From Minisyncoccia bacterium (lineage in GTDB: Bacteria; Patescibacteriota; Minisyncoccia; 2-02-FULL-40-12; IGHO2-01-FULL-4-A), in NCBI GenBank assembly GCA_050015375.1, contig JBEKBN010000006.1, positions 454-64,453 on the forward strand: 64,000 nt of DNA, written 5' to 3'. The notes below the pieces were generated by a model, which saw only the letters and a list, made by a program, of their open reading frames with translations, was not told the DNA's origin and searched no databases. Position 1 is the stretch's first letter. The number at the start of each line of letters is the position of its first letter. Positions 12,312 through 59,956 of the stretch are shown one piece after another. Made by a program: the position numbers and the translations under genes.

Positions 12312-12875
12312 ATGTCTTGGCAAATCTGTAAGCCGAATTCTGTTCCCCCACTTTTTGAGTTGCCCCAAAAGTGGGGGAGGCGATCATTTATCTGGTCCCT
12401 CGGTTACCCTCGGGATCTAGCGTCTCTTCCCCCACTTTTTAAGTTGCCCTAAAAGTGGGGGACACGGACTTGCACCGGGCAGGGTTTAGCGCGCATCCAT
12501 GTCGCCATGGAGCGGTCCCGTTCGGGGCCTTTTCACCCGTGATCCGCTTGCGCGGACTCGGAATAGTTTCTGTGCCACTTTCCCTGAATTTTGATAAATA
12601 ACTTTTGTCTTAAGAACAAAAACTATCCATCTTATATTCGGTGGCCATTAGCCACTGCCCTGCTTACGCAATCACCAACTGCTAATCTCTAATCTCAAAT
12701 AAAACCATTGGCGATCTTAGTTAACAATTAATGATTGCGTAAGCGGTGTTCGGACTTTCCTCCCTAAAACATTTTGCTTTCGCAAAATGTTCGGGCGATC
12801 AATTCGCAAAGCGAATTGATTTAGCCCCAAATCCAATAAGAATTCGTAGAGTAATCACCCGATTTACCAGGACTT
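12312..12875 (-). ncRNA. rnpB: RNase P RNA (bacterial type A-like) with an extended helix and twin hairpin insertions
   Basis: Reverse complement carries GGGAGGAAAGUCCGAAC (P4 5'), CAGGGCAG, AGUGGCACAGAAAC, CGCGCAAGCGGAUCACGGGUGAAAAGG, CUAAACCCUGCCCGGUGCAAG and ACAGAAUUCGGCUUACAG (J/P4 3'). These align with E. coli M1 RNA. The 5' and 3' ends are approximate. Confidence 0.8.
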
Positions 12876-15591: not shown

Positions 15592-16833
15592 TTATTCGTA
15601 TCGCAGCGCCTCGATCGGGCTTTTCCTTGCCGCTGTCCGGGCGGGGATGATGCCGAAGGCGAAACCGATGGCCGTTGAAACCGTCACCCCCAAGATCGCG
15701 CCGGTGTAAGAAAAAATGAACGGGAAATTGATGCCCAGAAAATTATTAACAATGAAAACGGTCGCAATATTGAAAAGCGTTCCCAAGATTATACCCACCA
15801 AACCGCCGGTGAAGGTCAGCATCACCGCCTCGATCAAAAATTGAAGAAGAATGTCGTTGTTAGTAGCGCCGACGGCTTTCCGAAGGCCGATCTCTCGCGT
15901 CCGTTCGGTCACTGAGACGAACATGATGTTCATGATGCCGACTCCGCCGACGATAAGTGAAATAGCGGCGATGGACGACAAAAGCAAAGTCAAAACGGTG
16001 GTAATCGTGCCGATAGTGTTGACCAGATCAGCTTGGGTTTGGATGTAGAAATCATCTTTAACCGGGTCGGTGATGTTGTGGTCGGCCCGAAGCACGGCCG
16101 TGGCGTCGGAGATGACATTACTGATGGTGTCGGTCGAACTGGCCTGGATCATGACCCGCTGGAAATAATTGATGCCCAAAATATATTCCTGGGCCGTGGA
16201 ATATGGCGTCAAAATGGCCTCGTCAAAATTTATAATGGATGACGAACCCTTGGGCGCGACGACACCGATGATTCGCAATGACTTGTCCTTTATTTTTATT
16301 TTCTCGCCGATGGGACTTGACAGGCCAAATAATTTTTGGGCGACGGTTTGACCGATAACGGCTACAGCATTTTTGTCGGCGACATCTTCCGCCGTGAACA
16401 TCGCTCCCTCGCCGATACTGATATTAAAAAGGGCGGCCATATTTTCATCACCGCCAAGAAGCGTTGCGCTGTAAACCTCCGGGCCGTAGCTGGCGACGCC
16501 GGGGCCGGTAACCATAGCTTCAACCATGACGGCATCGGGAACATTGCTGGTTTTTTTCAAAGCGTCGATATCCCTTTGTTTTATCGAATCGGTCAGCAAA
16601 CTTCCGGCAAAACCGGACGGGCCGCTGGGCTGGCGGCCGGGCAGAATGTAAATATTGTTCGGACCCAAGCCCTGGATCTGGCCGACGATAAGTTGCTGGG
16701 CGCTTTGGCCGATGGACATTACTAAAATTATCGAAGTGATGCCGATGACAATACCCAAAATCGTCAACGCCGAACGCGACTTGTGGCTTGAAAGCCCGAT
16801 GAAAGACATTTTGACGGTATCTCTTAGTTGCAT
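15592..16833 (-). CDS. ABC transporter permease, MacB/FtsX-type
   Basis: 413 aa with an N-terminal TM, a large periplasmic domain and a C-terminal FtsX-like 3-TM bundle. Sits in an operon with an ATPase and an HlyD adaptor. Confidence 0.85.
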   Translation of the reverse strand: MQLRDTVKMSFIGLSSHKSRSALTILGIVIGITSIILVMSIGQSAQQLIVGQIQGLGPNNIYILPGRQPSGPSGFAGSLLTDSIKQRDIDALKKTSNVPDAVMVEAMVTGPGVASYGPEVYSATLLGGDENMAALFNISIGEGAMFTAEDVADKNAVAVIGQTVAQKLFGLSSPIGEKIKIKDKSLRIIGVVAPKGSSSIINFDEAILTPYSTAQEYILGINYFQRVMIQASSTDTISNVISDATAVLRADHNITDPVKDDFYIQTQADLVNTIGTITTVLTLLLSSIAAISLIVGGVGIMNIMFVSVTERTREIGLRKAVGATNNDILLQFLIEAVMLTFTGGLVGIILGTLFNIATVFIVNNFLGINFPFIFSYTGAILGVTVSTAIGFAFGIIPARTAARKSPIEALRYE

Positions 16834-16856: not shown

Positions 16857-17579
16857 TTATTTCACAAATCCGTCTTTGGAAATTATTCTTCTCTCGGTGT
16901 TTATTTCTTCTCTTTGGATGGTGCCGTCATGGATATGGATGATACGCTCGGCGCAGCCGGCGACATAAGATTCGTGAGTCACCAAAACTATGGTGTGGCC
17001 ATCGTTGTGCAATTTTTCAAAAAATTCCAGAATAACTTCGCCGGATCTTGAATCTAAACTTCCCGTCGGCTCGTCGGCGAAAATAACTTTCGGATTATTG
17101 ACCAAAGCCCGAGCGATGGCCACCCGCTGTTTCTGACCGCCGGATAATTTCGTGACTTGGAAGTCCTCGCGATCATGAAGGCCGACCAGGTCCACCAGTT
17201 TTTTGGCAATCCGAGTTCTTTCCGGCTCATCAATTCCTCCGTAGACGAGCGGAAGTTTCACGTTTTCCATGACCGATAATTTCGGCATCAAGTTGAACGA
17301 CTGAAAAACGAAGCCGATTTTTTTGTTCCTGACATCGGCCAATTCATTGTCGGAGAATTTGCTCAATTCCTTGCCGTCGAGATAATATTGGCCGCCCGAC
17401 GGCCGGTCAAGGCAACCTAAAACCTGGAGCAAAGTGGATTTGCCCGAGCCGGACGGTCCGACAATGGCCACGAATTCCCCGGAGTTTATCGTCAGGTTGG
17501 CTTTGACTATGCCGGGAGTGGCTTGGCCGTCGTCATAATATATTTTTTCGAGATTTTTGGTTTCAATTAGGATTGACAT
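16857..17579 (-). CDS. ABC transporter ATP-binding protein (MacB/LolD-like)
   Basis: Walker A GPSGSGKST, signature LSGGQKQRVAIARAL, and Walker B IFADEPT. Confidence 0.9.
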   Translation of the reverse strand: MSILIETKNLEKIYYDDGQATPGIVKANLTINSGEFVAIVGPSGSGKSTLLQVLGCLDRPSGGQYYLDGKELSKFSDNELADVRNKKIGFVFQSFNLMPKLSVMENVKLPLVYGGIDEPERTRIAKKLVDLVGLHDREDFQVTKLSGGQKQRVAIARALVNNPKVIFADEPTGSLDSRSGEVILEFFEKLHNDGHTIVLVTHESYVAGCAERIIHIHDGTIQREEINTERRIISKDGFVK

Positions 17580-19174
17580 CAGTCGGTTATTATTTTGTCG
17601 CCTTCCCGAACACCGCTAAGGATCTCCACTTTGCCATCGGAACCGTAAAGGCCGGTCTGGATCTGGACTTGAGTTGAGTGGACGCCGTCCGCCGAAAGCA
17701 ATTGGACATATTTATTCCCATTTTCACGGATGATCGTTCTTTGGGGCAAAAACAAAACATTTTGGCGGTTGTCGTTCGAGATATCAAGATTGGCGGTCAT
17801 GCCGGGTTTGATCCGGTCGTCGTTTTGGCTGAGAGTGAAAATAGTTTTGTATGTCGGCACGCCCTCGATAACCGATTCTGAAGGATAGATCTGAGAAACG
17901 ACAGCGTTCCAAGTCACATCCGGACCGTAGGCGTCGAGGGTAACCGTTGCCGGGTCGCCGACTTTGATCTTTGAAACATCAGCTTCTGGAACATTGGATT
18001 CGATCTGGTATTTGTTCATGCCGATGACAGAAACAACCGTGGCCTCGGGAGCAACAATCTCGCCGACCTGGAGATCGAAAGTAGCAATAGTGCCGGCAAT
18101 GGGCGAGCGCAAAGTATTCTTGTCGAGCTGGCTTTGGATCTGAGCCTGACTGGCTTGGGCCTGTGTCAAAGCCGCTTTGGCAATGTCGATGTCATATTGG
18201 GTCGGCGGAGCGATCTTCAAAGCCAGTTGCGACTCCAAGCTGGCGACATTATTTTGAGCGGTGATGATGGCTTGGCCTTGATCGGTAACAGCGGTGATTT
18301 GGGCTAGGACACCGGCTTTGGCCGAAACAATGACCGCTTTGTCAGCATCGGTTGCCGTGATGCCGTTTAAGCCAGTGTAGATATCATCGAGCGCGGTTTG
18401 GGTCAGGACCAAAACATTTTTTACATCCTTGATAAGCTGATTGCCATCCACCAGTGACGGATTAGTTTCATAACCGGAAATTTCAGCCACTAGCCCGCTT
18501 TGCAATACCAAGAATGCCGATGAGTTGTAGTTTCCCAAATTAGGTTTGTCATAAATAGCGAACAGAGCGTCGGCTTTATCGCCAATGATCTTTTGAAATT
18601 GGTCAAAATCAATGTTGGGATATTTTTGGGCGGAGTCGGAAACGGAAACCATTGCATTTATTGCCGTGTTCAAAGCTGTTTTTGCCACTGCCAGCGAGTC
18701 CTTGGTCAAGGTGTCGTTAAGAATGTTTTTAGCGCTGTCCAAACTTGTCTGCAAAACACTGACATCTTCCGGCCGCGGACCCTGGAGAAGCTGATCGTAT
18801 TTGGCCTGTGCCGACTGGACATTGGCCGTGGCGCCAAGAAGCTGGGCTTCCAGGTCGGACGAATCCAATTTGGCGAGAACTTGGCCGGCAGTGACTTTGT
18901 CGCCGACGGCGCCGGAGATGCTGACGACCTTTCCGCTGTGGTCGAACGACAAATTGACCTGGTCATTGGCGGAAATTTGGCCGGTCTCAGAAATAACCTG
19001 CTCAATATTTCCCTTTTGAACAGCGACGGTTTTCAGCGTTGACGGTTTAGCCCGGAACAAAAAAGCTCCGCCGGCCAAGACCAAAACGATAATTCCCGCC
19101 CAAACATATGTCCGGGGGCGTTTGAAAAAGGTCGGCTTCATAATCGGTTGATTTTCATCCATAATGTTATCCAT
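17579..19174 (-). CDS. HlyD-family periplasmic adaptor subunit (MacA-like)
   Basis: N-terminal TM, a long coiled-coil, and beta-barrel/MP domains. I placed the start at MDNIMDENQ (19174) rather than the track's 19207, which reads into the IR element. Confidence 0.75.
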   Translation of the reverse strand: MDNIMDENQPIMKPTFFKRPRTYVWAGIIVLVLAGGAFLFRAKPSTLKTVAVQKGNIEQVISETGQISANDQVNLSFDHSGKVVSISGAVGDKVTAGQVLAKLDSSDLEAQLLGATANVQSAQAKYDQLLQGPRPEDVSVLQTSLDSAKNILNDTLTKDSLAVAKTALNTAINAMVSVSDSAQKYPNIDFDQFQKIIGDKADALFAIYDKPNLGNYNSSAFLVLQSGLVAEISGYETNPSLVDGNQLIKDVKNVLVLTQTALDDIYTGLNGITATDADKAVIVSAKAGVLAQITAVTDQGQAIITAQNNVASLESQLALKIAPPTQYDIDIAKAALTQAQASQAQIQSQLDKNTLRSPIAGTIATFDLQVGEIVAPEATVVSVIGMNKYQIESNVPEADVSKIKVGDPATVTLDAYGPDVTWNAVVSQIYPSESVIEGVPTYKTIFTLSQNDDRIKPGMTANLDISNDNRQNVLFLPQRTIIRENGNKYVQLLSADGVHSTQVQIQTGLYGSDGKVEILSGVREGDKIITD

Positions 19175-19286
19175 CCCGTTAGAAGTCACTGTTGCACAGT
19201 TAATCACATAAGTTATAAAACCTGCTACAGAATGACTTTATAATTGATTCCAATTCGCGAACCCGTTAGGGTGACTTCTAACGGGA
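19174..19286. repeat. 113-bp inverted-repeat element (TCCCGTTAGAAGTCAC ... GTGACTTCTAACGGGA) abutting the macA start codon; copy A of three
   Basis: 16-bp perfect terminal IRs. The element ends exactly at the ATG of the downstream minus-strand gene. Related copies are at 52085-52197 and 58608-58685. Confidence 0.75.
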
Positions 19287-19334
19287 TCCATGATTTTGTC
19301 GTAATTCAGTAATTTTATTATAAATTATAAGAAA

Positions 19335-19766
19335 TTATCGGTCAATATTTTCGGTGATTTTTTTATTAAGAGCGGCGAACTGGGTCAGCTCGTCATCAGT
19401 TAGCGCGTCGAAAAGTTTCATCATTTTCCGCAATCCTTGTTCTTTGAACTCGTTGAACATCTTTTTCGCTTTTTCAGATAATGACAAGGCAATGACTCGG
19501 CGGTCATCGGGAGCGCCTTTGCGGATCAAATACCCGTTGTCCACTAGGCCGTCTATCAATTGTGTCGCCGCGCTACTGGAAATGTGGAGCGTTTCAGCAA
19601 TGGTCTTTACATTCGTGGAATTATTTTTAGCCACGAAAAGCAGCACAAAACCTTGAGACGGGGTAATACCCAGCTCATTTTTAGCGGTATAGCCCACCAT
19701 CAGCTTATGCTTCATGGCATGCAAATTTTGCAGGAGGTCTTCAATGATATTTTTACGATTTATCAT
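19335..19766 (-). CDS. MarR-family transcriptional regulator
   Basis: Winged-helix region GITPSQGFVLLFVAKNNSTNVKTIAETLHISSSAATQLIDGLVDNGYLIR. Confidence 0.85.
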   Translation of the reverse strand: MINRKNIIEDLLQNLHAMKHKLMVGYTAKNELGITPSQGFVLLFVAKNNSTNVKTIAETLHISSSAATQLIDGLVDNGYLIRKGAPDDRRVIALSLSEKAKKMFNEFKEQGLRKMMKLFDALTDDELTQFAALNKKITENIDR

Positions 19767-23630: not shown

Positions 23631-25460
23631 ATGCAAAACATCCGCAATTTTTGTATAATTGCTCACATAGACCATGGCAAAAGCACCTTAGCCGACCGGC
23701 TTTTAGAATTGACGGGCACAATTGAAAAGCGCAAAATGCACGAACAATTTCTGGACCAGATGGAATTGGAGCGTGAAAGAGGGATTACCATAAAACTCCA
23801 ACCCGTCCGCATGCAATACGGCGAATATATTTTGAATTTAATAGATACGCCGGGCCATGTGGATTTCACCTACGAAGTTTCTCGTTCGCTGGCGGCGGTG
23901 GAGGGTGCGATTTTACTTGTGGATGCCGCCAAAGGCGTTCAAGCCCAGACACTGGCCAATTTGCATTTGGCGCAAAGACAGAATTTGGTCATTATTCCGG
24001 TCATCAACAAAATTGATCTACCCAATGCCAGAGTGGCCGAAGCCGAAGAAGAAATTTCCAATTTGCTTGCCGTTGAACCGGACGAAATTATCAAGATTTC
24101 CGCCAAGACCGGTGAAGGCGTGGAGAAAGTTCTTGAAGCGGTTGTCGAAAAAATTCCCCCGCCATCTACTCACTACTCACTACCAACTACCAACTATCCT
24201 CGCGCCCTGATTTTTGATTCCGCTTTTGACGCTTACAAAGGCGTTGTCGCTTATGTCAGGATTTTTGACGGCAACTTCCGGGCCGGAGACAAAATTAAAC
24301 TTTTCGCTTCCAAAGCCGAAGCCGAGATAATCGAAGTTGGTCAGTTTAAACCCGCCTTGAGCAAAACCGATTCTATCGGCGAAGGTGAGATCGGCTATAT
24401 CGCCACCGGTTTGAAAAATCCCGGCGATGTCCGCGTTGGTGATACGGTTTTCTCTACAAACTATAAACCACAAACTACAAACTTTTCACCCCTTCCCGGC
24501 TACAAAGAACCGATGCCGGTGGTTTTCGCCAGTTTTTTTCCGGAAAAAGGGGAAGATTATGATCTGCTGAAAGACGCGCTGGGAAAACTGAAATTGACCG
24601 ATGCCTCGCTGACTTATGAACCGGAATCTTCACCAGCCCTCGGCCGGGGTTTTCGCCTTGGCTTTCTGGGTATGCTCCACACCGAGATCATCAGTGAGCG
24701 GTTGCGCCGGGAATTCAAATTGTCGCTGATAATTTCCTCGCCGTCGGTGGAATATCACATTTTGAAAAAGAACGGCCAAGAAATTCCCATCCGTTCGGCA
24801 TCAGAGATGCCCAATCCGAGTTATATTGATAAAATTTTCGAACCGACGGTTGTGCTGGAATTGTTGAGCCCATCTGAATATCTCGGTTCATTGATGAAAC
24901 TTCTTTCCGAAATGCGAAGCTCTTATCTAGCCACTGATTATTTGACCAAGGAAATCGTGATTTTAAAATACAAAGTCCCGCTGACTGAAATTGTGACCGA
25001 TTTTTATGACAAACTGAAAAGCGTCAGTTCCGGTTACGCTTCGATGAGTTATTCACCCCCACACTCATTAGATGAGTGTGGGGGCAAGCAGGATGGCTAT
25101 GAGGAATCTGATCTGGTTCGGCTGGATATTTTGGTGGCCGGGGATTTGGTTGAACCGTTTTCGAGAATGGTTCCGAGATCGCGCGTTCATGACGAAGGCA
25201 AGAGAATTGTCGAGAAGTTGAAGAAAATAATTCCGCGGCAATGGTTCGCGGTGGCGATCCAAGCGGCCATCGGCGGGAAAATAATCGCTCGGGAAACCAT
25301 CAGCGCTTTGCGAAAAGATGTTACCGGTTATCTCTACGGCGGGGATATTACCCGCAAGAAAAAATTATTGGAGAAGCAAAAGAGGGGGAAGGCGAGGATG
25401 AAAGAGGAAGGCAAGGTGAATATTCCGCAGAATGTGTTTCTGGAGATGCTGAAAAAGTAG
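23631..25460 (+). CDS. lepA: elongation factor 4 (LepA)
   Basis: IRNFCIIAHIDHGKSTLADRLL...DTPGHVDF and a C-terminus matching E. coli LepA. Contains three in-frame repeat insertions. Confidence 0.92.
   Translation: MQNIRNFCIIAHIDHGKSTLADRLLELTGTIEKRKMHEQFLDQMELERERGITIKLQPVRMQYGEYILNLIDTPGHVDFTYEVSRSLAAVEGAILLVDAAKGVQAQTLANLHLAQRQNLVIIPVINKIDLPNARVAEAEEEISNLLAVEPDEIIKISAKTGEGVEKVLEAVVEKIPPPSTHYSLPTTNYPRALIFDSAFDAYKGVVAYVRIFDGNFRAGDKIKLFASKAEAEIIEVGQFKPALSKTDSIGEGEIGYIATGLKNPGDVRVGDTVFSTNYKPQTTNFSPLPGYKEPMPVVFASFFPEKGEDYDLLKDALGKLKLTDASLTYEPESSPALGRGFRLGFLGMLHTEIISERLRREFKLSLIISSPSVEYHILKKNGQEIPIRSASEMPNPSYIDKIFEPTVVLELLSPSEYLGSLMKLLSEMRSSYLATDYLTKEIVILKYKVPLTEIVTDFYDKLKSVSSGYASMSYSPPHSLDECGGKQDGYEESDLVRLDILVAGDLVEPFSRMVPRSRVHDEGKRIVEKLKKIIPRQWFAVAIQAAIGGKIIARETISALRKDVTGYLYGGDITRKKKLLEKQKRGKARMKEEGKVNIPQNVFLEMLKK
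24166..24200. repeat. heptamer tract (CTACTCA x2, CTACCAA x2, CTATCCT) in frame inside lepA, encoding STHYSLPTTNYP
   Basis: Five 7-nt units with a CTA anchor. Absent from E. coli LepA at the equivalent PAPQGDPDAPLQ position. Confidence 0.65.
24454..24488. repeat. heptamer tract (CTACAAA/CTATAAA/CCACAAA/CTACAAA) in frame inside lepA, encoding TNYKPQTTNF
   Basis: Same unit as the tpiA tract. About 7 extra residues relative to E. coli LepA. Confidence 0.65.
25056..25084. repeat. palindromic element CCCCCACACTCA-TTAGA-TGAGTGTGGGGG (copy 2) inserted in frame in lepA, encoding SPPHSLDECGG
   Basis: Perfect 12-bp arms with a 5-nt loop. Adds about 11 residues relative to E. coli LepA between GYAS and SDLV. 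Confidence 0.75.
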
Positions 25461-31473: not shown

Positions 31474-31517
31474 ATAACATGTAGATATTGACCATATGGT
31501 CAATATCTACATGTTAT
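31474..31517. promoter_or_regulatory. 44-bp perfect palindrome (ATAACATGTAGATATTGACCAT|ATGGTCAATATCTACATGTTAT), putative operator
   Basis: Perfect dyad 30 bp upstream of the PaaX-like gene, in a divergent region shared with arsR. A near-copy is at 32111-32138. Confidence 0.6.
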
Positions 31518-31546
31518 TGTTTTATAGTTTCTGTTATTATGTATTC

Positions 31547-32113
31547 ATGAAGGCGATAAGAAGAGGAACCCTAGCTTTTAAAATTTTAAAAGGCATTGGT
31601 CTAACGGGTTTGTTTTTAATAAGCATGTCGAACCCGCGTTTTGGGGTTCAGTTATTGACGGGATTTAAAGAATATAACAAAAGGGAGAAACAAAAATTCA
31701 GAGAATCGTTATATTATTTGAAAAAAAGAGGATTGGTAAAAATCATAGAAAACAGTAGCGGCGGCTTTACGGCCAAATTGTCAAAGACCGGAGAAAAAAT
31801 GTTGGAATCTATCGACATTGATTGTCTTGAATTGAAAAATAAGGAATTTGATGGAAAATGGCGCGTGGTTATCTTTGATGTTCCGGTCAGATTGAATATT
31901 AAAAGACACGCTTTTACGGAACGACTGAAAACTCTGGGTTTTATCATGGTTCAAAGAAGTGTATGGATTTGTCCGTTTAGGTGCAGAAAAGAACTGGCGA
32001 TGTTAACCCAATTTTACGAAATTGAGAAATACGTCACATATTTAGAAACATCTTTTGTGGATAACGAAGAAGCGTGGAAAAAAGAGTTTTCACTAATCAA
32101 ACTGGTGGCTTAG
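31547..32113 (+). CDS. PaaX-like regulator: N-terminal winged helix plus a C-terminal Cas2-fold domain
   Basis: SLYYLKKRGLVKIIE (wHTH), then GKWRVVIFDVPVRLNIKRHAFTERLKTLGFIMVQRSVWICPF, which resembles the Cas2/PaaX_C motif (YDV..KRR...L...G.R.Q.SV). Confidence 0.5.
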   Translation: MKAIRRGTLAFKILKGIGLTGLFLISMSNPRFGVQLLTGFKEYNKREKQKFRESLYYLKKRGLVKIIENSSGGFTAKLSKTGEKMLESIDIDCLELKNKEFDGKWRVVIFDVPVRLNIKRHAFTERLKTLGFIMVQRSVWICPFRCRKELAMLTQFYEIEKYVTYLETSFVDNEEAWKKEFSLIKLVA

Positions 32114-32138
32114 ATATTCACCATATGGTCAATATCTA
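32111..32138. promoter_or_regulatory. imperfect 28-bp palindrome (TAGATATTCACCAT|ATGGTCAATATCTA), second copy of the operator-like dyad
   Basis: One central mismatch relative to the 31474 dyad. Overlaps the stop codon of the PaaX-like gene. Confidence 0.5.
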
Positions 32139-32217
32139 CACTTGGGGGTGTTGATATTGTGAGCGGATGACATAACCATGTTTCTATAAAAAGAAACACG
32201 GTTTTATTTTCCACAAG

Positions 32218-36412: not shown

Positions 36413-39400
36413 TTGTTTATGAAAATAAACAAACTTGGGGGGGGGCTTAAGTGGTCGATTTTCGCAACTCTTTTAGCAACCGCTCTAGTAGGCGGATTTT
36501 TTGTACACAATGCCAAGGCGACTGTTAGCACCTGTTCTGATATCACCCTTGGTGTGACTCAAATCACTGCTATCCAAACCTATGCCACCGCTGACAATAC
36601 TTTTGCCGACGGCTGGAAATGGGTTTTCAATGTTACCGTTCCGACTTGCCAAACACTTCTTCAAATGAGATTCGGTGACTGGGTTGGAACCGCTGGCACC
36701 ATTCCAGCCGCGACAAATATTCAATTTTATTCTAATCAATCTACAAATGCAGCCGATGAGGCGCACGCAATAATTATCAGTGCCGCTAATACATATAGTG
36801 GTTTGATGATCCTTTCTGGTGCTGATCTTGATGGGTCAACACCCGGCACCCAGATCCAAATAACAGTTGAAGCGAGAGTTCCAATTGATTCAGCTGGTGG
36901 TTCTTACTCGACAAGTTATGGCATACAATCGAATCCTGCACCGACCGTTCTATTCGTTCTCCCTATCGGTAACATCAATGTTGCTAATGGCACCGCTCTT
37001 GATGCTGTAGGTTTGCCGGCTAATGCTACCGTAGGTTTGAGCAACGGAAACACTCAATTAATGGCAGTCGTTTGGGATGGTGGTACGCCAACTTATGACG
37101 GCACAACAGCTGGCACCTATGCTTTTACAGGTGCATTGACTTTACCTGCTGGTGTTACTAATCCGGACGGCAAAACAGCCAACGTAAACGTAATTGTGGA
37201 ACCAATACCTACCCACACCATTACCTCCTCTGTTGTAGGCGCATCTGTCTTTGGTCCGAAACACGGCACGATTTCTCCTCTCGGTGCAACGACCGTGAAT
37301 GATGGCGACAGCCAGACCTACACGATTACGCCCGATACCGGCTACCAGATTCTTGAGCTTAAAGTGGACGGTGTTTCCACAACGCCGGCCGACAGTTATA
37401 CTTTCACCAATGTCACAACTGACCATACCATTGCCGTGAGCTTTGCCCCGATTACTTATACCTTAACCTATTCCGCCGGAGCCCATGGTTCCATTGTTGG
37501 AACTTCGCCCCAGGCAGTAAATTACGGCGCTGATGGAACAGCCGTGACTGCGACGCCAGCCGAGGGTTATCATTTCGTAGGTTGGAGCGATCAGTCAACA
37601 ACTAATCCGAGAACCGACAACGATGTAACCGGCAATATTGATGTCACTGCCAGTTTTGCAGTTAACCAATATACAATTACTTTTGGTTCAAATGGTGGCT
37701 CAGCCGTAGCTTCCATAACTCAGGATTATGGCTCACCGGTTACTCCACCAGACGATCCAACTCGAGCAGGTTATACCTTCGCCGGTTGGGTTCCAACAGT
37801 TCCGGCAACGATGCCATTAGGCGGAGCGAGTTTAGTTGCCCAGTGGACTGCTGTTGTTGCACCAATCACCCACACTCAAAAGGATCTGACGACTTGGGTT
37901 CCGATTCAGGGTGGAATAACTGCCGATGTAACAATTTCAACAGTAAATAATAAATTCCACGCAGACGGAGTTCCAACTGGATATACTTTGGTGTATTACC
38001 CTAATGTTGGAACTTATGATACCTACACTGGAGAAGTTTATCCTGTAGAGGGCACTAATATGGATCTTCCAATGTCAGATGATTTGAATCGCGGTAAAGA
38101 AGATTACTGCAATAATGGATTTAATCCACACGCAATTCACTGTGATGGCGCTAAGTTGTGGCTTGTTCCAACCGAAGACATATCAACAACAATTAATTCT
38201 GATGGAAGCCAGACATTGGTTGGAGATTGGAATACGATCGCTCCGAATATTTTGTTCGAGACAAATCTGATAACTTATCAAGCAACTCCGATCACTCACA
38301 CCCAAAAGGATCTGAACACCTGGGCTCCACTTCCAAATGGAATAACTGCCGATGTTACATATGACCTGACCGGAGATACTTTCCAAGCGACCGGAGTTCC
38401 ACCTGGATATACTTTGGTGTATTATCCTAAACCCGCAACTTGGACCGGATTGGTCTATTCCGTCATTGGTAATAGCATGACCCTTCCAATGCCAGGTGAT
38501 TTGAATGGTAGTCCATCATCAGATTACTGTACCGTTAGAAATAGTGAGGGGAATTTGGAAAATCCGCATGAAATAATTTGCCAAGGAGCCGCGTTGTGGC
38601 TTGTTCCAACGGGTGAATTAACAGATAACCACGATGGGACTTATACAATTAATTGGGGCACTGCTTCTGATATTTTGTTCGAGACAGACCTGATAAATTA
38701 CACAGCTCCGACTTCTACCCCAAGCGCTAATCTTATTCTCACCGCTCCAGATGCCACAACTATTAATCAATCTGCTTTAGTTCCTGAAACGAGCAACGGA
38801 ATACCCACTGGCGGAAACTCAACAGTTGATACTGCCATCAATGGCCTTAGCCCGATTGCGGTGAGGTTGCAGAATACCGGCGATGCCGCTTCTGCTAATG
38901 TTCGCATCAGCCCGATTGGCGACGCTTCTGGGCACATTCAGTTATGGGCAAAAGATACTTTAGGTAATTGGTATGACATCAATGTTACTGGCTGGGGGCC
39001 AGCCGAAGGTTTTCCAGTGCCAGCCCCATACGATGCCACTACTAATGTCTATGCGATTTCCGACGAAGTAGGATCTTATGACATGATAGCTAATTTGATT
39101 TTGGTAAGTAATTCATCACTCGTTGCGCACACAAAGGGAATAATTACCGTTGCCCCTGCCCCGACCCTTTTGTTTGATACCGGCATCACTGATGGTTCCA
39201 CTATCTTACCGGGTACACTTGCAACTCAGTTCACGATTACAACTACGGGTGTCCCGGGTACGATGCACACGCTTGGGTTAACGGGCACCACAGCAACTCC
39301 AGCTCTTGCAGATGGCAATTATGACTTTAAGCTTGTGGCAACCTCAGACGTGCAAGCCGCTTTGACTTCTTATTTTGGAGCTAAGGCAGGATGGACTTCG

Positions 39401-40051
39401 GATATGCAAATGCAAACTCAAATCAATTCTGAAATTGCTGGCAGCTCGCCATTCTTCAAACTAAACGCTGCCAGCGGCGCCTATTCCTTAGTGGATAATT
39501 TCAAACAAACACTTGGCTTGCCAGATACATCCCTGACTATTGATGATGATTATCCAACCGGCACATACGTCTATACCGGCACACTTACTGGAACAAACAG
39601 CGCGACCCTGCCGGTTACTGTAACATTGGTAGTTGAAGGACCAACTCCGCCACCAACTCCTTCTGTAACACAATTGAAAATTATTACTAATCCGCAAACT
39701 ATTCTGGTAGATACCGCTTCAGGTGTGATTAGAGTGGAATCAGAGGACGCGTTAGGGAATCCATTAAAAGTTTCAGTTGCGACAGAAGTAGATTTCACCT
39801 CCAGTCCTGGAACAGGTTTGTTTTCTTCGGCAAATTATGAAAGTAAAACGTGTAATGACGATTGGTTAAGCACGCAAAGTTTAACCATAGAGAAAGGAAC
39901 TGCACATATAAGTTTCTGTTACAAAGACAACGTGGCGGGAACGCCGACACTAACAGCTTCTTCTGATGACTTGACTCCTGGTACTCAAGTAATTACAATA
40001 ACCTCAACTGATACCAGCTCAACTGACACTAGCGACACCACGCAACAATAA
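36413..40051 (+). CDS. giant repeat-rich cell-surface protein (Listeria-Bacteroides/flg_new-type repeats, Ig-like domains)
   Basis: 1212 aa with a signal peptide, repeated modules (ITHTQKDL...GVPTGYTLVYYP twice) and GYTFAGW-type repeats. A G9 tract sits in the signal-peptide coding region. Confidence 0.75.
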   Translation: MFMKINKLGGGLKWSIFATLLATALVGGFFVHNAKATVSTCSDITLGVTQITAIQTYATADNTFADGWKWVFNVTVPTCQTLLQMRFGDWVGTAGTIPAATNIQFYSNQSTNAADEAHAIIISAANTYSGLMILSGADLDGSTPGTQIQITVEARVPIDSAGGSYSTSYGIQSNPAPTVLFVLPIGNINVANGTALDAVGLPANATVGLSNGNTQLMAVVWDGGTPTYDGTTAGTYAFTGALTLPAGVTNPDGKTANVNVIVEPIPTHTITSSVVGASVFGPKHGTISPLGATTVNDGDSQTYTITPDTGYQILELKVDGVSTTPADSYTFTNVTTDHTIAVSFAPITYTLTYSAGAHGSIVGTSPQAVNYGADGTAVTATPAEGYHFVGWSDQSTTNPRTDNDVTGNIDVTASFAVNQYTITFGSNGGSAVASITQDYGSPVTPPDDPTRAGYTFAGWVPTVPATMPLGGASLVAQWTAVVAPITHTQKDLTTWVPIQGGITADVTISTVNNKFHADGVPTGYTLVYYPNVGTYDTYTGEVYPVEGTNMDLPMSDDLNRGKEDYCNNGFNPHAIHCDGAKLWLVPTEDISTTINSDGSQTLVGDWNTIAPNILFETNLITYQATPITHTQKDLNTWAPLPNGITADVTYDLTGDTFQATGVPPGYTLVYYPKPATWTGLVYSVIGNSMTLPMPGDLNGSPSSDYCTVRNSEGNLENPHEIICQGAALWLVPTGELTDNHDGTYTINWGTASDILFETDLINYTAPTSTPSANLILTAPDATTINQSALVPETSNGIPTGGNSTVDTAINGLSPIAVRLQNTGDAASANVRISPIGDASGHIQLWAKDTLGNWYDINVTGWGPAEGFPVPAPYDATTNVYAISDEVGSYDMIANLILVSNSSLVAHTKGIITVAPAPTLLFDTGITDGSTILPGTLATQFTITTTGVPGTMHTLGLTGTTATPALADGNYDFKLVATSDVQAALTSYFGAKAGWTSDMQMQTQINSEIAGSSPFFKLNAASGAYSLVDNFKQTLGLPDTSLTIDDDYPTGTYVYTGTLTGTNSATLPVTVTLVVEGPTPPPTPSVTQLKIITNPQTILVDTASGVIRVESEDALGNPLKVSVATEVDFTSSPGTGLFSSANYESKTCNDDWLSTQSLTIEKGTAHISFCYKDNVAGTPTLTASSDDLTPGTQVITITSTDTSSTDTSDTTQQ
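36437..36445 (+). repeat. homopolymeric G9 tract within codons 9-11 of the giant surface protein gene
   Basis: AAACTTGGGGGGGGGCTTAAG. The only G/C homopolymer of 8 nt or more that I found in the window. Confidence 0.8.
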
Positions 40052-51569: not shown

Positions 51570-52085
51570 TTAAGAATCCTTCGAGATCAAGCTGGCCGTG
51601 AAATATCCGACGATGATCCCGATAAGCGCGCCGCCGAGAATATCAGAAGGATAATGGACGCCGGCCATGACTCTGGCGACGCCCATCACGATACTGCCAA
51701 CAAAGAACGCCGTTCCCCAGCGTTTGTTGTAATAAAATATTATCATTGAAAGCGCGAAGAAGAAACTGGCGTGGCCGGAGGGAAAAGAATTGCCGCTCTC
51801 GGAGACGAGCTGGTGAACCTGATAAATAGCGAATGGCCGGGGATGATGGTAAAAATATCGGATGACCGTGGTCAAAATCCCGCGGGAAATGAAAACCGAA
51901 ATAATTCCGGCCCAAAAAACTTTCCAGCGAGTCGCCAAGAAAGGTTTCAACCATAAAAAGACCAAAAATAAAATTCCCAAAAGATACGCCCAGTAGATGG
52001 CGAAAAAAACCGTGAGCCAACTCAAAAAACCCGGCGAGCCGACGAGATCGTTCAAAGCAAAAAATATTTTTGTATCCAGATTCAT
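51570..52085 (-). CDS. PAP2-family phosphatase (undecaprenyl-diphosphatase-like)
   Basis: PAP2 motifs PSGHASFFFAL and GVHYPSDILGGALIG. I placed the start at MNLDTKIFF (52085), not the track's 52118, which reads into the IR element. Confidence 0.75.
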   Translation of the reverse strand: MNLDTKIFFALNDLVGSPGFLSWLTVFFAIYWAYLLGILFLVFLWLKPFLATRWKVFWAGIISVFISRGILTTVIRYFYHHPRPFAIYQVHQLVSESGNSFPSGHASFFFALSMIIFYYNKRWGTAFFVGSIVMGVARVMAGVHYPSDILGGALIGIIVGYFTASLISKDS

Positions 52086-52197
52086 CCCGTTAGAAGTCAC
52101 TGTTTCACAGCTAATCACCTAATTTATACAACTAACGACAGCTGACTTAATTAAAGTATCTATGGTTGCAAACCCGCTAGGGTGACTTCTAACGGGA
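52085..52197. repeat. 113-bp inverted-repeat element, copy B (TCCCGTTAGAAGTCAC ... GTGACTTCTAACGGGA), abutting the PAP2 start codon
   Basis: Same length and terminal 16-bp IRs as copy A. About 40 bp at each end are conserved and the centre is divergent. Confidence 0.75.
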
Positions 52198-52207
52198 TTC
52201 ATTTTAT

Positions 52208-52663
52208 TTAACGGTTTTCGGCCTTGCTGGCGTAATAGTTCTCGATCAAGCCGGTGATGATTATCGCCAGAATTATCACGCCGACCACGAGCATGAAAAT
52301 ATCAAAAGTGTCGGGAAAAGCATAAACGCATAGGCGATTCAACGTCGTGCAGTTAAGCAAAAGTCCGATCTCATCGGCGAACAAACCGATGCCGGCGCCG
52401 ATAAAAATACTGGCCACCTCCAGCGGTCGTTTGTCCCGGCTAAGCACGCCCAGCACTCCACCGACGGAAAGAAAAAGCATACCGTAGAAAAAATGGTGGA
52501 TATGAAAGCCGTGAATATATATCACGCGGGTGACATACAAGGAATATAACCTTGCTCCAACAAAAAAGATCAAGAACGAAACCAGGATAACATTCAAAAG
52601 CCGTTTTTTTTCGTCCTTAAAATTGAAGATCCATCTGAAGGACCTGATGACCAAATTGGACAT
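52208..52663 (-). CDS. hypothetical membrane protein
   Basis: Four TM helices. No motif. Confidence 0.45.
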   Translation of the reverse strand: MSNLVIRSFRWIFNFKDEKKRLLNVILVSFLIFFVGARLYSLYVTRVIYIHGFHIHHFFYGMLFLSVGGVLGVLSRDKRPLEVASIFIGAGIGLFADEIGLLLNCTTLNRLCVYAFPDTFDIFMLVVGVIILAIIITGLIENYYASKAENR

Positions 52664-55256: not shown

Positions 55257-56543
55257 ATGACCGTTTCTGATATAATTAAACAAATGGAGGAAAAAGAAAA
55301 TGAATTGAAATTCCCCAACGGGTTTTTGTGGGGGACGGCCACGTCAAGCTATCAGATAGAAGGTGGAATAAATAATTGCGACTGGGCCCAAGCGAATCGC
55401 GGTCCCTCGACAAGTTCAGGACATCAGATTCCTGATGCTGGGCGCGCTTGCGATAGTTACAATAAATACGAGGAGGATTTTGATATTGCCAAATCGCTTG
55501 GCCAGAACGCCCACCGTTTCTCTATAGAATGGGCGCGGATCGAGCCGGAAGAGGGAAAATTCGACGAGAAAGAAATCGAGCATTATAAAAAAGTGCTGGA
55601 CGCCTTGCGAACTCGCCCCCACACTCAAGATTTGAGTGTGGGGGGAACGGGATTGGAACCATTCGTGACCCTTTGGCATTTCACGCTTCCGGTTTGGTTC
55701 GCGAAAATGGGCGGTTTCGAAAATCCGAAATCACCGGAAATATTTTCCCGATATTGCGAATTTGTCGTTGGCAAAATGGGGGATAGAGTTCACCCTGTTA
55801 AATCCGGCGAAGCCGGTGCCGCGGAGCGGCAATTTAACAGGGTAAAATTCTGGGTAACTATAAACGAACCGATGGTTTATGCCTCGAATGGTTACCGAAA
55901 AGGTCAATGGCCGCCGTTTGAAAAAAATATTTTCAGGTTCATGAAGGTTATCAAAAATCTAATCATGTCGCACAATCTAGCATATGACAAAATCAAGAAC
56001 ATTGATCCTTCGGCTCAGATCGGCATCGCTAAAAATAATATAAATTTTGAGGCAAATTGGAACCCAATCAATCGCCTCTTGTCAAGCTTTCTGAATTTTT
56101 TCTGGAATCGCAGATTTTTGAATAAAATTTCACAGGATTTCATCGGTTTGAATTATTATTTCCACAAAAAGTTCGGGGATAGGGCGAAGTATCCGAAATC
56201 CGACATGGGTTGGGATATTTATCCGAAAGGAATTTATAATTTGCTGATGGAACTGAAAAAATATGGTAAACCGGTTTACATCACCGAAAACGGATTGGCG
56301 GACAAAGAAGACAAACAACGCGCCGATTTCATCCGTGAACATTTGAAATGGGTTTCGAGAGCGATCCGGGATGGCTCTGACTGCCGCGGATATTTTTATT
56401 GGTCGCTTCTGGATAATTTTGAGTGGGCGGAGGGTTACAAACAAAAATTCGGTTTGGTGGAAATTAATTTTGAAACAATGGAAAGAAAGATCAGGAATTC
56501 AGCGTGGGAATTTGCAAAAATTTGTAAAAATAACGAAATATGA
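55257..56543 (+). CDS. glycoside hydrolase family 1 (beta-glucosidase-like) carrying two in-frame palindromic insertions
   Basis: FLWGTATSSYQIEGG, TINEP (acid/base) and ITENGLA (nucleophile). Carries insertions RTRPHTQDLSVGG and HPVKSGEAGAAERQFNRV relative to canonical GH1. Confidence 0.88.
   Translation: MTVSDIIKQMEEKENELKFPNGFLWGTATSSYQIEGGINNCDWAQANRGPSTSSGHQIPDAGRACDSYNKYEEDFDIAKSLGQNAHRFSIEWARIEPEEGKFDEKEIEHYKKVLDALRTRPHTQDLSVGGTGLEPFVTLWHFTLPVWFAKMGGFENPKSPEIFSRYCEFVVGKMGDRVHPVKSGEAGAAERQFNRVKFWVTINEPMVYASNGYRKGQWPPFEKNIFRFMKVIKNLIMSHNLAYDKIKNIDPSAQIGIAKNNINFEANWNPINRLLSSFLNFFWNRRFLNKISQDFIGLNYYFHKKFGDRAKYPKSDMGWDIYPKGIYNLLMELKKYGKPVYITENGLADKEDKQRADFIREHLKWVSRAIRDGSDCRGYFYWSLLDNFEWAEGYKQKFGLVEINFETMERKIRNSAWEFAKICKNNEI
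55616..55644. repeat. palindromic element CCCCCACACTCA-AGATT-TGAGTGTGGGGG (copy 3), in frame in GH1
   Basis: Perfect 12-bp arms. Encodes RPHTQDLSVGG, inserted before the conserved GxEPFVTLxHxxLP block. Confidence 0.75.
55793..55842. repeat. second, distinct GC-rich palindromic insertion (CCCTGTTAAAT-28 nt-ATTTAACAGGG), in frame in GH1
   Basis: 11-bp perfect arms. The loop itself holds two hairpins (CCGGC-GAA-GCCGG and GCCGC-GGA-GCGGC). Encodes about 16 extra residues between GDRV and KFWVTINEP. Confidence 0.65.
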
Positions 56544-58509: not shown

Positions 58510-58607
58510 TCCGTAATGTATATTAGGGGTCTTTAAACTTGCAAAAACATTTAAATATTTTCCGCTAAAGGTAGATTTGCCCGCGGCGGAAAAAATATAA
58601 ACATGAA

Positions 58608-58685
58608 TCCCGTTAGAGAGCGTGATTTAATTCAACATTTTAGACCGGTTGAATTACACGATTTTAACGGGACTCTCTAACGGGA
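58608..58685. repeat. 78-bp inverted-repeat element, copy C (TCCCGTTAGAGAG ... CTCTCTAACGGGA), abutting the htrA ATG
   Basis: 13-bp terminal IRs related to copies A and B, with an internal TTTTAACGGG half-site. Ends ...TCTAACGGG ATG. Confidence 0.7.
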
Positions 58686-59956
58686 TGAATAAAAAAGAAA
58701 TTTCCAGGTTTTTCAGAAGACATTTTATGCTGACCACGATCGTGGCTTGTCTGATCGTCTCGGCACTGGCCGGCGGAATCGTCGGCTATTACAGCGTCGA
58801 GGGCGCGCTTGGCCAGAAACCGGCTTTGCCGAATTTTGTCAAGCAACTGATCAATCCTCAAGCCGGCAATTCAACACCCGCTTTTACCAACGAACAATCT
58901 CAGGTCATCAGCGTCGTCAAAAGCGCCTCACCGGCGGTGGTCAGTATCGTGGCTTCAAAAGATCTGACCACGGTTGAGCAGAACGGCTACAATCCGTTCC
59001 AGGATTTTTGCAGCGATCCGTTCTTCAAACAATTTTTCGGCGACCAGTGCGATTCGGCAACGCCGGCGCCGAAATCCACGACCCAGAAACAACAAGTCGC
59101 GGCCGGCACCGGATTTTTGATAACTTCCGACGGTTTGATCCTGACCAACAAGCATGTCGTTGACATTTCGGGCGCCGATTTCACGGCCATCACCAGCGAC
59201 GGCAAAAGTTATCCGGCCAAGATCTTGGCCACCGATCCGGTTTTGGATGTGGCCTTGGTCAAAATTTCCGGGACTAATTTCCCAACCTTGCCTTTGGCCG
59301 ATTCGAGCCAAATTCAGATCGGTCAGACGGTCATCGCCATCGGCAACGCTTTGGGCCAATTCTCGAACACGGTTTCAAAAGGCGTAATTTCCGGCCTTTC
59401 CCGTTCGATTACCGCCGGAGACAATGCCGGTTCTTCGGAAACGCTAAACTCCGTTATCCAAACCGATGCCGCCATCAACCCGGGTAATTCCGGCGGACCG
59501 CTTTTGGATCTGAGCGGCAATGTCATTGGCATCAACACCGCCATTGCCCAAGGCGCCCAAAATATCGGTTTTGCCATTCCTATCAATCAAGCCAAAAAGG
59601 ATATCGGCCAGGTTAAAACCAGTGGCAAGATCAGCACCGCATACCTTGGCATTCGCTACATCGCCATTGACGACACGGTCAAACAGGAAAATAATCTGAC
59701 GGTGAATTACGGCGCGCTGGTAGTCAGAGGCGACACTCAGGATCAGGTGGCGGTCATGCCCGGCTCGCCGGCCGATATCGCCGGCATCAAAGAGAACGAC
59801 ATTATTCTCGAGGTTAACGGAACCAAAATAGACCAGAACAACGACCTGGCGACATTGCTTCAAAAATACAATGTCGGCCAAACGATCCAGCTGAAAGTTT
59901 TAAGCCAAGGAAAAGAAAAAACCGTTTCGGTGAAACTGGTGGAGAGACCTCAATGA
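58685..59956 (+). CDS. htrA: HtrA/DegP-family serine protease with a PDZ domain
   Basis: Trypsin-like core (TNKHVV...D...GNSGGPLLDLSGNVIGINTA) plus a C-terminal PDZ. I placed the start at the ATG at 58685, not the track's 58649, which is inside the IR element. Confidence 0.85.
   Translation: MNKKEISRFFRRHFMLTTIVACLIVSALAGGIVGYYSVEGALGQKPALPNFVKQLINPQAGNSTPAFTNEQSQVISVVKSASPAVVSIVASKDLTTVEQNGYNPFQDFCSDPFFKQFFGDQCDSATPAPKSTTQKQQVAAGTGFLITSDGLILTNKHVVDISGADFTAITSDGKSYPAKILATDPVLDVALVKISGTNFPTLPLADSSQIQIGQTVIAIGNALGQFSNTVSKGVISGLSRSITAGDNAGSSETLNSVIQTDAAINPGNSGGPLLDLSGNVIGINTAIAQGAQNIGFAIPINQAKKDIGQVKTSGKISTAYLGIRYIAIDDTVKQENNLTVNYGALVVRGDTQDQVAVMPGSPADIAGIKENDIILEVNGTKIDQNNDLATLLQKYNVGQTIQLKVLSQGKEKTVSVKLVERPQ

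Follow-up and report, generated by a model that had tools for sequence, protein, structure and literature searches.

The window analyzed here is a 64,000-nt stretch of contig JBEKBN010000006.1 (GenBank assembly GCA_050015375.1, positions 454 to 64,453) from a Minisyncoccia bacterium of the Patescibacteriota. It contains three copies of a short inverted-repeat element, each of which lies at the start of a gene. Copy A (19174..19286, minus strand) is 113 bp long including a terminal T...A pair, and its terminal inverted repeats (TIRs) form a stem of 16-17 bp. It precedes the gene for an HlyD-family adaptor (17579..19174, minus strand), which is followed downstream by the genes for an ABC ATPase (16857-17579) and then a MacB-like permease (15592-16833). 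Copy B (52085..52197, minus strand) also has 113 bp and belongs to the same subfamily as copy A, with which it shares 84-91% identity over the aligned ends; the gene behind it codes for a PAP2 phosphatase (51570-52085). Copy C (58608..58685, plus strand) is a 78-bp member of a short subfamily and stands before the gene for an HtrA-like protease (58685-59956). The gene products were assigned with Pfam. Those homologues of the HlyD-like protein that have a named source come from Patescibacteria/Parcubacteria.

A first-pass annotation of the window had reported three copies at these positions with TIRs of 13-16 bp. The sequence and a pattern scan agree on the three copies, and the TIRs are real; we measured 13-17 bp in A, B and C. 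A search pattern consisting of the two 12-nt TIR arms matches exactly A, B and C in the window and had no match in 100 dinucleotide-preserving shuffles. A looser pattern, which requires only a 4-bp direct repeat and YCCCG...CGGGR, again finds only A, B and C in the window, and 0-1 matches in the shuffles. On the gene (minus) strand, copy A consists of a distal arm, a CCTAACGGG half-site, a variable core and a proximal arm. This internal half-site (CCCGTTAGGG, 19262..19271) can pair with the adjacent arm as an 8-bp local hairpin. The half-site of copy B (CCCGCTAGGG) is located at 52173-52182, so that both of the half-sites described in the first-pass annotation are present. Copy C differs from A and B in that its extra half-site (complement CCCGTTAAAA, 58662-58671) lies beside the gene-proximal arm.

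Every copy in the window is bracketed by a 4-bp direct repeat, which is TCCA in copy A, TTCA in copy B and TGAA in copy C. Such repeats are the mark of a transposon insertion, and they had been overlooked before. In copy A the gene-side TCCA (19170..19173) forms, together with element base 19174, the working ATG of the HlyD-like gene (complement of 19172-19174). The TCCA on the far side (19287..19290) forms with the native base 19291 a second ATG (complement of 19289-19291), the old start codon, which is now a decoy. The same arrangement is found in copy B, where the gene-side TTCA (52081..52084) and base 52085 provide the working ATG of the PAP2 gene (complement of 52083-52085), and the far-side TTCA (52198..52201) is part of a decoy ATG (complement of 52200-52202). 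In copy C the far-side TGAA (58604..58607) belongs to the decoy ATG at 58603-58605, and the gene-side TGAA (58686..58689) makes up, with element base 58685, the working ATG at 58685-58687. When the start codons are included, the direct repeats read ATCCAT in A (19169-19174 and 19286-19291), ATTCAT in B (52080-52085 and 52197-52202) and ATGAAT in C (58603-58608 and 58685-58690). Each element in the window therefore has two ATGs, one adjoining the open reading frame (ORF) and one decoy at the far end. The elements had been described as ending immediately before the start codons. They do abut all three starts; however, the element itself contributes the A of the ATG as its final base (19174 and 52085, both read on the minus strand, and 58685, read on the plus strand). 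Counted from the rebuilt ATG the HlyD-like protein has 531 aa, and the gene caller of the public assembly picks the identical codon.

The decoy ATG of copy A opens a 17-codon ORF, which enters the element and stops 66 nt before the proximal ATG. In copy C the decoy ORF has 26 codons and ends at a TAA in the proximal arm; the first base of this TAA is 7 nt before the working ATG, which leaves 4 nt from stop to start. The decoy ATG of copy B is only 5 nt past the stop codon (52208-52210) of an upstream gene for a 151-aa protein, and the insertion has therefore split a tightly packed gene pair. The list of ORFs also contains GTG- and TTG-started versions of the genes with N-termini such as VTSNGM, which had already been called an artefact. 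They are most likely over-extensions, because in the case of another copy, which precedes a gene for lysyl-tRNA synthetase (LysRS), the alignment of the orthologues begins at the proximal ATG; from this codon the LysRS homologues have equal length and 100% query coverage.

Next we examined the family outside the window. When species-representative genomes were scanned with a pattern of the arms, in which core positions 1-9 were fixed and positions 10-12 were free to mismatch, at least 120 stretches matched; 132 non-redundant copies from the matches listed were analyzed. The carriers among these matches are mostly Patescibacteria (Saccharibacteria, Kaiser-, Nealson-, Lloyd-, Kerfeld-, Jorgensenbacteria and others), and further carriers belong to the Planctomycetota, Omnitrophota, Deltaproteobacteria, KSB1 and Stahlbacteria. 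A metagenome-assembled genome (MAG) that carries the element has several copies, and the 64-kb window has three. The element has the consensus Y-CCCGTTAGA-NNN...NNN-TCTAACGGG-R, a 13-bp TIR and a 4-bp target-site duplication. Just outside CCCG...CGGG there is always a Y at one end and an R at the opposite end; this outer pair is complementary in 128 of the 132 copies (T:A in 64, C:G in 64). The 4-mers that follow outward form identical direct repeats in 95/132 copies, and far fewer repeats are found in other registers and at other lengths. The 95 perfect duplications include TGAA (38), TAAA (16), TGGA (15), TGAG (6), TTGA (6) and TATG (5); in the TATG class the ATG is two bases further out. 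Copies with C:G ends favor the sites G/TAAA/C and G/TTGA/C, with the slashes marking the ends of the duplicated bases. Models with a 5- or 6-bp duplication (ATNNAT) were ruled out: the base preceding the left arm is always Y and the base following the right arm always R, and the native bases outside vary. Copies like ATGAAC...GTGAAT fit only a 4-bp duplication with a Y:R pair that belongs to the element.

Complementarity of the arms stops sharply after core position 12-13, and pairing beyond this point is at the level of chance. Core positions 10-12 pair in 69-72 of the 72 copies that lie on a start codon (see below), and they do so via six different triplets. The core is 75-134 nt long in the 132 copies, with all three length classes modulo 3 represented. 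The interiors are variable, stop-rich and cannot be aligned over the family; they often contain one subterminal stem-loop.

A few copies have an unusual position or structure. A TTGA duplication lies inside a -35-like TTGACA or TTGACG at L027:7369-7461, L120:3954-4052, L064:2075-2150 and L055:5657-5784 (L numbers denote loci), mostly in copies with C:G ends. In L027, L120 and L064 a -10-like hexamer is found about 17 nt beyond the -35-like site, and the insertion leaves an intact -35 box beside the element. At L096:2089-2231 a 30-bp minimal element, which consists of the arms only, is nested within a 143-bp element. Two tandem 78-bp copies at L028:2943-3104 hold the 6 bp between them in common.

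The start of lysS, the gene for LysRS, provides a direct comparison of filled and empty sites. In L087 the element is inserted exactly behind ATGAG with the duplication TGAG. In L132 (88% identity) an element sits at the same base; it has other arms (CCCGCCCTTTCT / AGAAAGAGCGGG) and the same T...A termini and duplication. One start codon has therefore been occupied by two arm families. The element is absent from L131 (87% identity), L133 (90%), L134/L135 (75%) and L136 (77%), where the native upstream sequence is followed by a single ATGAGCGA. The upstream -10 region (TATAGT or TATACT, then GGC) can be aligned between the filled loci L087 and L132 and the empty locus L131. The sole extra DNA in the filled sites is the element plus four bases; the element is thus mobile.

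The family as a whole is associated with start codons. The junction codon consists of the purine of the element and the duplicated TG. In 72 of the 132 copies this codon is ATG or GTG and begins an ORF with a length of 60 aa or more. The ORF lies on the right side in 36 of them, on the left side in 35 and on both sides in one; the remaining 60/132 copies are not on a start codon. An element with C:G ends at an ATG leaves ATGAAC on the far side and GTGAA... by the ORF, and an element with T:A ends converts a GTG into an ATG. The conversion in both directions means that the element supplies the initial base of the working codon. No start codon is left at the decoy position of 12 of the 72 start-codon copies, as expected if the decoy is dispensable. 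The genes behind the 72 copies are diverse. They matched 103 Pfam families, none of which was matched by more than two genes, and they include DnaA, topoisomerase I, ClpP, UvrD, two aminoacyl-tRNA synthetases (one of them LysRS), subunits of ATP synthase, SecG, ribosomal protein L1, pyrophosphatase, BipA, FtsK and CorA. The fact that many of these genes are essential means that the element cannot abolish their expression.

From these data we conclude that the repeats are very probably copies of a MITE (miniature inverted-repeat transposable element) or a similar non-coding element, which favors start codons and regenerates them. They are short and non-coding, have TIRs and a duplication of fixed length, occur at many unrelated sites and, in lysS, show insertion polymorphism. 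The insertion would proceed by duplication of 4 bp of the target; the subfamilies with T...A ends, to which all copies in the window belong, would insert at A/TGRR, which means at start codons. The duplicated TG and the terminal purine of the element would then recreate an ATG (or a GTG in the case of C...G ends) in front of the unchanged ORF, and the old ATG would become the decoy.

How could a gene be expressed through such an insertion? A predicted sigma-70-type promoter (TTGACC, 17 nt, TATAAT; 19317..19345, minus strand), which is based on a consensus match only, lies upstream of the decoy ATG of copy A. A scan for promoters and terminators found no such site inside copies A, B or C. Transcription most likely reads through the element. 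A Shine-Dalgarno-like 4-mer is present 3-12 nt upstream of the start in 9 of 61 genes in the window, compared to a background of 9%; initiation of translation in this organism seems to proceed mostly without Shine-Dalgarno pairing. A -10-like hexamer, often in the extended form TGGTATAAT, peaks exactly 6 nt upstream of many ATGs in the carrier genomes, in targeted genes and controls alike (e.g., L013, L054, L058, L101, L112, L116, L133 and L136). This arrangement suggests that leaderless mRNAs are common in these Patescibacteria. The host gene would then keep its own promoter, with transcription running on through the element and translation beginning at the rebuilt start codon. The rebuilt AUG may be usable in its new context since these organisms hardly use Shine-Dalgarno sequences. 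The decoy AUG would keep the native initiation context and open a short ORF (M-N/D-P-V-R...) into the element; ribosomes that load there may melt the 13-17 bp stem, which otherwise holds the first two bases of the working ATG.

Only 2/60 copies can be read straight through in frame. A start-codon copy in a deltaproteobacterial MAG (L104:5240-5332) has a length of 93+6 nt, is in frame and free of stops, and has a GGAGGA Shine-Dalgarno sequence before the old ATG. Judged from its sequence, this copy would not be bypassed but translated from the old Shine-Dalgarno sequence and ATG as an N-terminal insertion of 33 residues. A promoter in the arm that points outward and generates a leaderless mRNA was considered and rejected, as the constant arm has no -10-like hexamer at the right distance; good -10 hexamers occur in 45/72 copies in sense and in 50/72 in antisense orientation.

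Several observations weigh against the MITE-like explanation. No autonomous element with matching ends and the same duplication was found in 1.16 Mb of fetched loci. Related sequences are absent from plasmid and phage collections; the element is nearly absent from viral contigs, with three stretches and no parent insertion sequence among them. For the three copies in the window no empty allele was found, and all assemblies of the window organism carry the copies; the metagenomes of the Joint Genome Institute (JGI) gave no match for an empty allele of copy B. Orthologues of the HlyD-like gene (55% identity) without the element do exist, yet their upstream regions are too diverged to define a precise empty site. 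The copies also have a polarity. The arm with the CCTA extension is gene-proximal in 23 copies and distal in 4 (p = 3e-4), and the internal CGGG motif is in sense orientation in 20 and in antisense in 3. Furthermore, in one subfamily a subterminal hairpin (ACGG-stem-loop-stem-CCTA) is kept paired by compensatory changes in 5/7 pairs among 27 sequences, which suggests a role as single-stranded DNA or RNA. Neither the polarity nor the maintained hairpin is obviously expected of a purely neutral parasite of double-stranded DNA.

The bias for start codons itself is also stronger than anticipated. We obtained an expectation from the window after computational excision of the three elements. It contains 379 ATGRR sites in coding sequence, 52 in intergenic sequence and 23 at annotated starts, and about 31% of the surviving insertions would be expected at starts if insertions in coding sequence are lost. 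In CPR (Candidate Phyla Radiation) genomes 48 copies with T:A ends are on a start codon and 9 are not. For C:G ends the numbers are 11 and 25 in CPR genomes and 4 and 21 in non-CPR genomes. With 48/57 copies on starts, the T:A-ended elements of CPR genomes deviate from the 31% with a binomial p of about 1e-16. The bias exceeds what a preference for the 5-mer and the loss of coding insertions can explain. Start regions may have a further property that the enzyme recognizes; alternatively, nearly every other intergenic position of these compact genomes is under selection.

There is also a possible, though rather doubtful, stronger version of the transposition model. According to this version the transposon machinery actively homes to translation start codons and not merely to ATGRR, and the terminal purine has evolved for the regeneration of ATG or GTG. 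Sequence logos of the region upstream of the targeted start codons revealed no additional specificity. The related idea that the starts of leaderless transcripts are targeted was rejected; 30% of the targets have a -10 hexamer 5-8 nt upstream, compared to 18-22% of the controls, and the enrichment is unclear. If active homing were true, the element would colonize even the essential genes of streamlined, Shine-Dalgarno-poor genomes, which would be safe-haven targeting of a new kind. Besides a hairpin, each target would acquire a short ORF upstream with a decoy start codon, and the distant phyla would have a transposase in common.

The same observations can be read in a way that is compatible with a MITE-like origin, namely that the element arrived by transposition and was kept at starts for its usefulness, be it in setting the level of translation by means of the stem and the decoy ORF or as a hairpin in the processing or stability of the RNA. 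The polarity, the compensatory changes, the excess at start codons, the persistence on essential genes and the stop-free, in-frame copy in the Shine-Dalgarno-using deltaproteobacterium are all in line with it. The decoy ORF, too, is open up to the stop codons of the proximal arm in 20/60 copies, compared to 7.8 +/- 2.5 in shuffles. This last excess is however nearly equal in antisense (16/60), and it provides no evidence of translation; the arm closes the other two frames, and a translational coupling via the decoy ORF was rejected for the same reason. In addition, close relatives can do without an element at the gene in question, the interiors are highly variable, and the polarity could stem from a directional insertion into an asymmetric target. 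We regard such an exaptation as unlikely.

A different mode of transposition was also considered, in which a single-stranded hairpin of the REP/REPIN or IS200/IS605 PATE kind is moved by an HUH/RAYT-type enzyme. The whole element does fold as a hairpin, and a subterminal stem-loop is preserved by compensation and not by sequence; the insertion polarity and the lack of a DDE partner in the 1.16 Mb of fetched loci would also fit. However, REP/REPIN and IS200/IS605-derived PATE families insert without target duplication and have subterminal hairpins in place of true TIRs. No RAYT or TnpA gene came to light, although no search was aimed at one. The presence of a duplication in 95/132 copies and of a 13-bp TIR with a fixed Y:R pair in 128/132 makes this mechanism very improbable.

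The first-pass annotation had offered yet another explanation, a cis-regulatory RNA of an envelope regulon, in which the transcribed element toggles between two mutually exclusive hairpins and controls the initiation of translation. Some features agree with it. Use of the promoter predicted upstream of copy A would make the element part of the mRNA; the orientation of the copies relative to the gene is not random; and copies A and B have the competing half-site. The long-range stem also holds the A and U of the working AUG. What is missing is a balanced alternative. In minimum free energy and centroid folds of the window copies with their flanks, a stem of 16-17 bp connects the arms on both strands (z -4.3 to -7.2; copy C, z = -7.2), so that the antisense fold is equally good. 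The local hairpin between far arm and half-site has 8 pairs and is absent from both types of fold. An internal CGGG half-site is present in only 23/72 gene-oriented copies, and that of copy C is at the other end. These data speak against switching of the riboswitch or attenuator kind. Covariation had been suggested as a check of the long-range pairing; with pairing beyond 12-13 nt at chance and an interior that is not conserved, only the subfamily-specific hairpin covaries. The regulon did not survive the Pfam scan of the 72 downstream genes, which shows no functional theme; with housekeeping genes of so many kinds behind the element, the link of the three window genes to the envelope is a coincidence. 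Copies unrelated to gene starts had been named as an argument against regulation, and 60/132 copies are not on a start codon, with 72/132 on one. Rfam has no match over any copy (whole window, gathering score), nor for copy A at E values up to 10. Finally, the duplications and the empty orthologous sites show that the elements are insertions. Together, these results largely refute the regulatory RNA, to which we give next to no credence. The alternative mentioned in the first-pass annotation, a MITE that supplies a start site, turned out to be essentially right, with the start rebuilt from a purine and TG.

The least plausible idea is a recombination site similar to integron attC or to Xer sites, with the arms as binding sites and the shared 4-mer as crossover region. 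The size (75-135 bp), the imperfect palindrome, the arms GTTAGAA / TTCTAAC close to the attC core consensus and the position of copy B, where one gene ends and the next begins, fit this idea, but the core-like motifs are in reversed order (GTTRRR first, YYYTAAC last). An attC site begins with R'' (RYYYAAC) on its 5' side and closes with R' (GTTRRRY) on its 3' side, and its cassettes are arrayed beside intI. The copies of the present element are scattered one by one without cassette arrays, their flanking 4-mers vary between sites as they do in transposition, and no integrase is seen nearby.

Among known systems, the MITE-like element is closest in behavior to the Correia/NEMIS elements of Neisseria, the RUP elements of Streptococcus pneumoniae and the Rickettsia palindromic elements (RPEs). 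Correia/NEMIS and RUP are likewise short, non-coding, multi-copy sequences with TIRs and short duplications, which form hairpins and are co-transcribed with their neighbors. Correia elements are substrates of RNase III and can alter the expression of neighboring genes. Both families have a TA duplication and different, longer TIRs (26 bp in Correia), whereas the present family has a 4-bp duplication, the TIR YCCCGTTAGA and termini of 9-12 nt that are nearly invariant across several phyla. To our knowledge neither Correia nor RUP elements sit on start codons or rebuild them. RPEs are also small palindromic mobile DNAs that are tolerated in or at essential genes of reduced genomes. They are inserted in frame and translated within the protein; in the present family, in contrast, in-frame read-through is the exception, all lengths modulo 3 occur, and the ORF is kept by regeneration of the start codon.

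The element recalls transposons of the piggyBac and IS1380 types in its CCC...GGG termini, in a TIR of 13 bp, in subterminal repeats that are asymmetric and in a duplication of 4 bp with T as its first and A as its last base. The target of piggyBac is TTAA, and IS1380 generates duplications of 4-5 bp. The present family differs in its targets (TGRR, TAAA, TTGA), with no TTAA among the perfect duplications, and in the extra Y:R pair outside the CCC. No transposase of the piggyBac or IS1380 type was seen, with no search aimed at one; the resemblance may serve as a lead only. The mobile byp elements of Magnusiomyces mitochondria and the translational bypass in T4 gene 60 also involve a hairpin insert between duplicated codons in a gene that is still expressed. 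The byp elements are inside ORFs and need ribosome hopping. The present insert is at the very start of the gene, where ordinary initiation at the rebuilt codon suffices. With riboswitches and attenuators the element shares a 5' structure that covers part of the start codon and, in some copies, two exclusive pairings; it lacks a conserved core for ligand binding and a coherent set of genes, its alternative structures are not balanced, and it is demonstrably an insertion. Our analysis adds to the MITE reading the duplication of TG(RR) in combination with a first base of the start codon that is supplied by the element. We found no description of the element family in the full-text papers searched or in Rfam, although such an absence does not prove novelty.

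A second arm family (AC-CCCGCYCTTTCT...AGAAAGRGCGGG-GT, mostly 91-97 bp) is abundant but heterogeneous in JGI metagenome contigs (L137-L256, e.g., L149, L154, L156, L172 and L248). Only its T:A-ended members resemble the family of the window, in that 5/11 are on start codons with clean duplications. The C:G-ended majority (93/111) is mostly without duplications; its flanks often have ...AC on one side (e.g., TTGAGCAC) and, in about one third, GTAAAGG or a similar sequence on the other. The second arm family lies among other palindromic repeats such as CCCAGCCCTTTCT...AGAAAGGGCTGGG, and a few of its matches (L158, L161, L181 and L247) seem to be stems within a conserved structured RNA.

The window contains additional repeats. 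A candidate for a degenerate fourth copy at 38531-38613 is a chance match; it has 83 nt, lies within an intact ORF of 1212 aa and has no duplication. The same ORF (36413-40051, plus strand) has tandem repeats about 426 nt apart with 80-84% identity around 37862-38700. The RNase P RNA match (12313-12810, minus strand) extends over 498 nt for a model of 367 positions. This region includes two GC-rich hairpin repeats of 40 nt (TCCCCCACTTTTT...AAAAGTGGGGGA; 12339-12378 and 12423-12462) with 93% identity, which may be an insertion or an expansion segment of CPR RNase P RNA. Another hairpin repeat (CCCCCACACTCA-loop-TGAGTGTGGGGG) occurs at 25053-25087, 55613-55647 and 58237-58271 with at least 83% identity; it looks like a terminator and is unrelated to the element. 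A near-perfect palindrome of 28-30 bp (TAGATATTGACCATATGGTCAATATCTA) at 31480-31509 and 32111-32140 flanks an ORF of 205 aa (31496-32113). The two palindromes may act as operators or delimit a small cassette.

With the MITE-like element in place of an envelope-stress riboswitch, which is removed as a reading of this locus, there is a practical consequence for annotation, in that the genes are drawn out into the element by gene callers and in ORF lists, or the decoy ATG may be chosen. If confirmed, the element would be an example of selfish DNA that survives in genomes with almost no spare DNA, because a 4-bp duplication and one base of its own restore the gene exactly. In the CPR bacteria dnaA, lysS, clpP and rplA would have to start behind a constant, structured sequence without a Shine-Dalgarno motif, which would make the element a natural probe of translation initiation. 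The 13-bp ends, which hardly differ between Patescibacteria, Planctomycetota, Omnitrophota and Deltaproteobacteria, would then imply either a widespread transposase or an exchange of the element between these groups.

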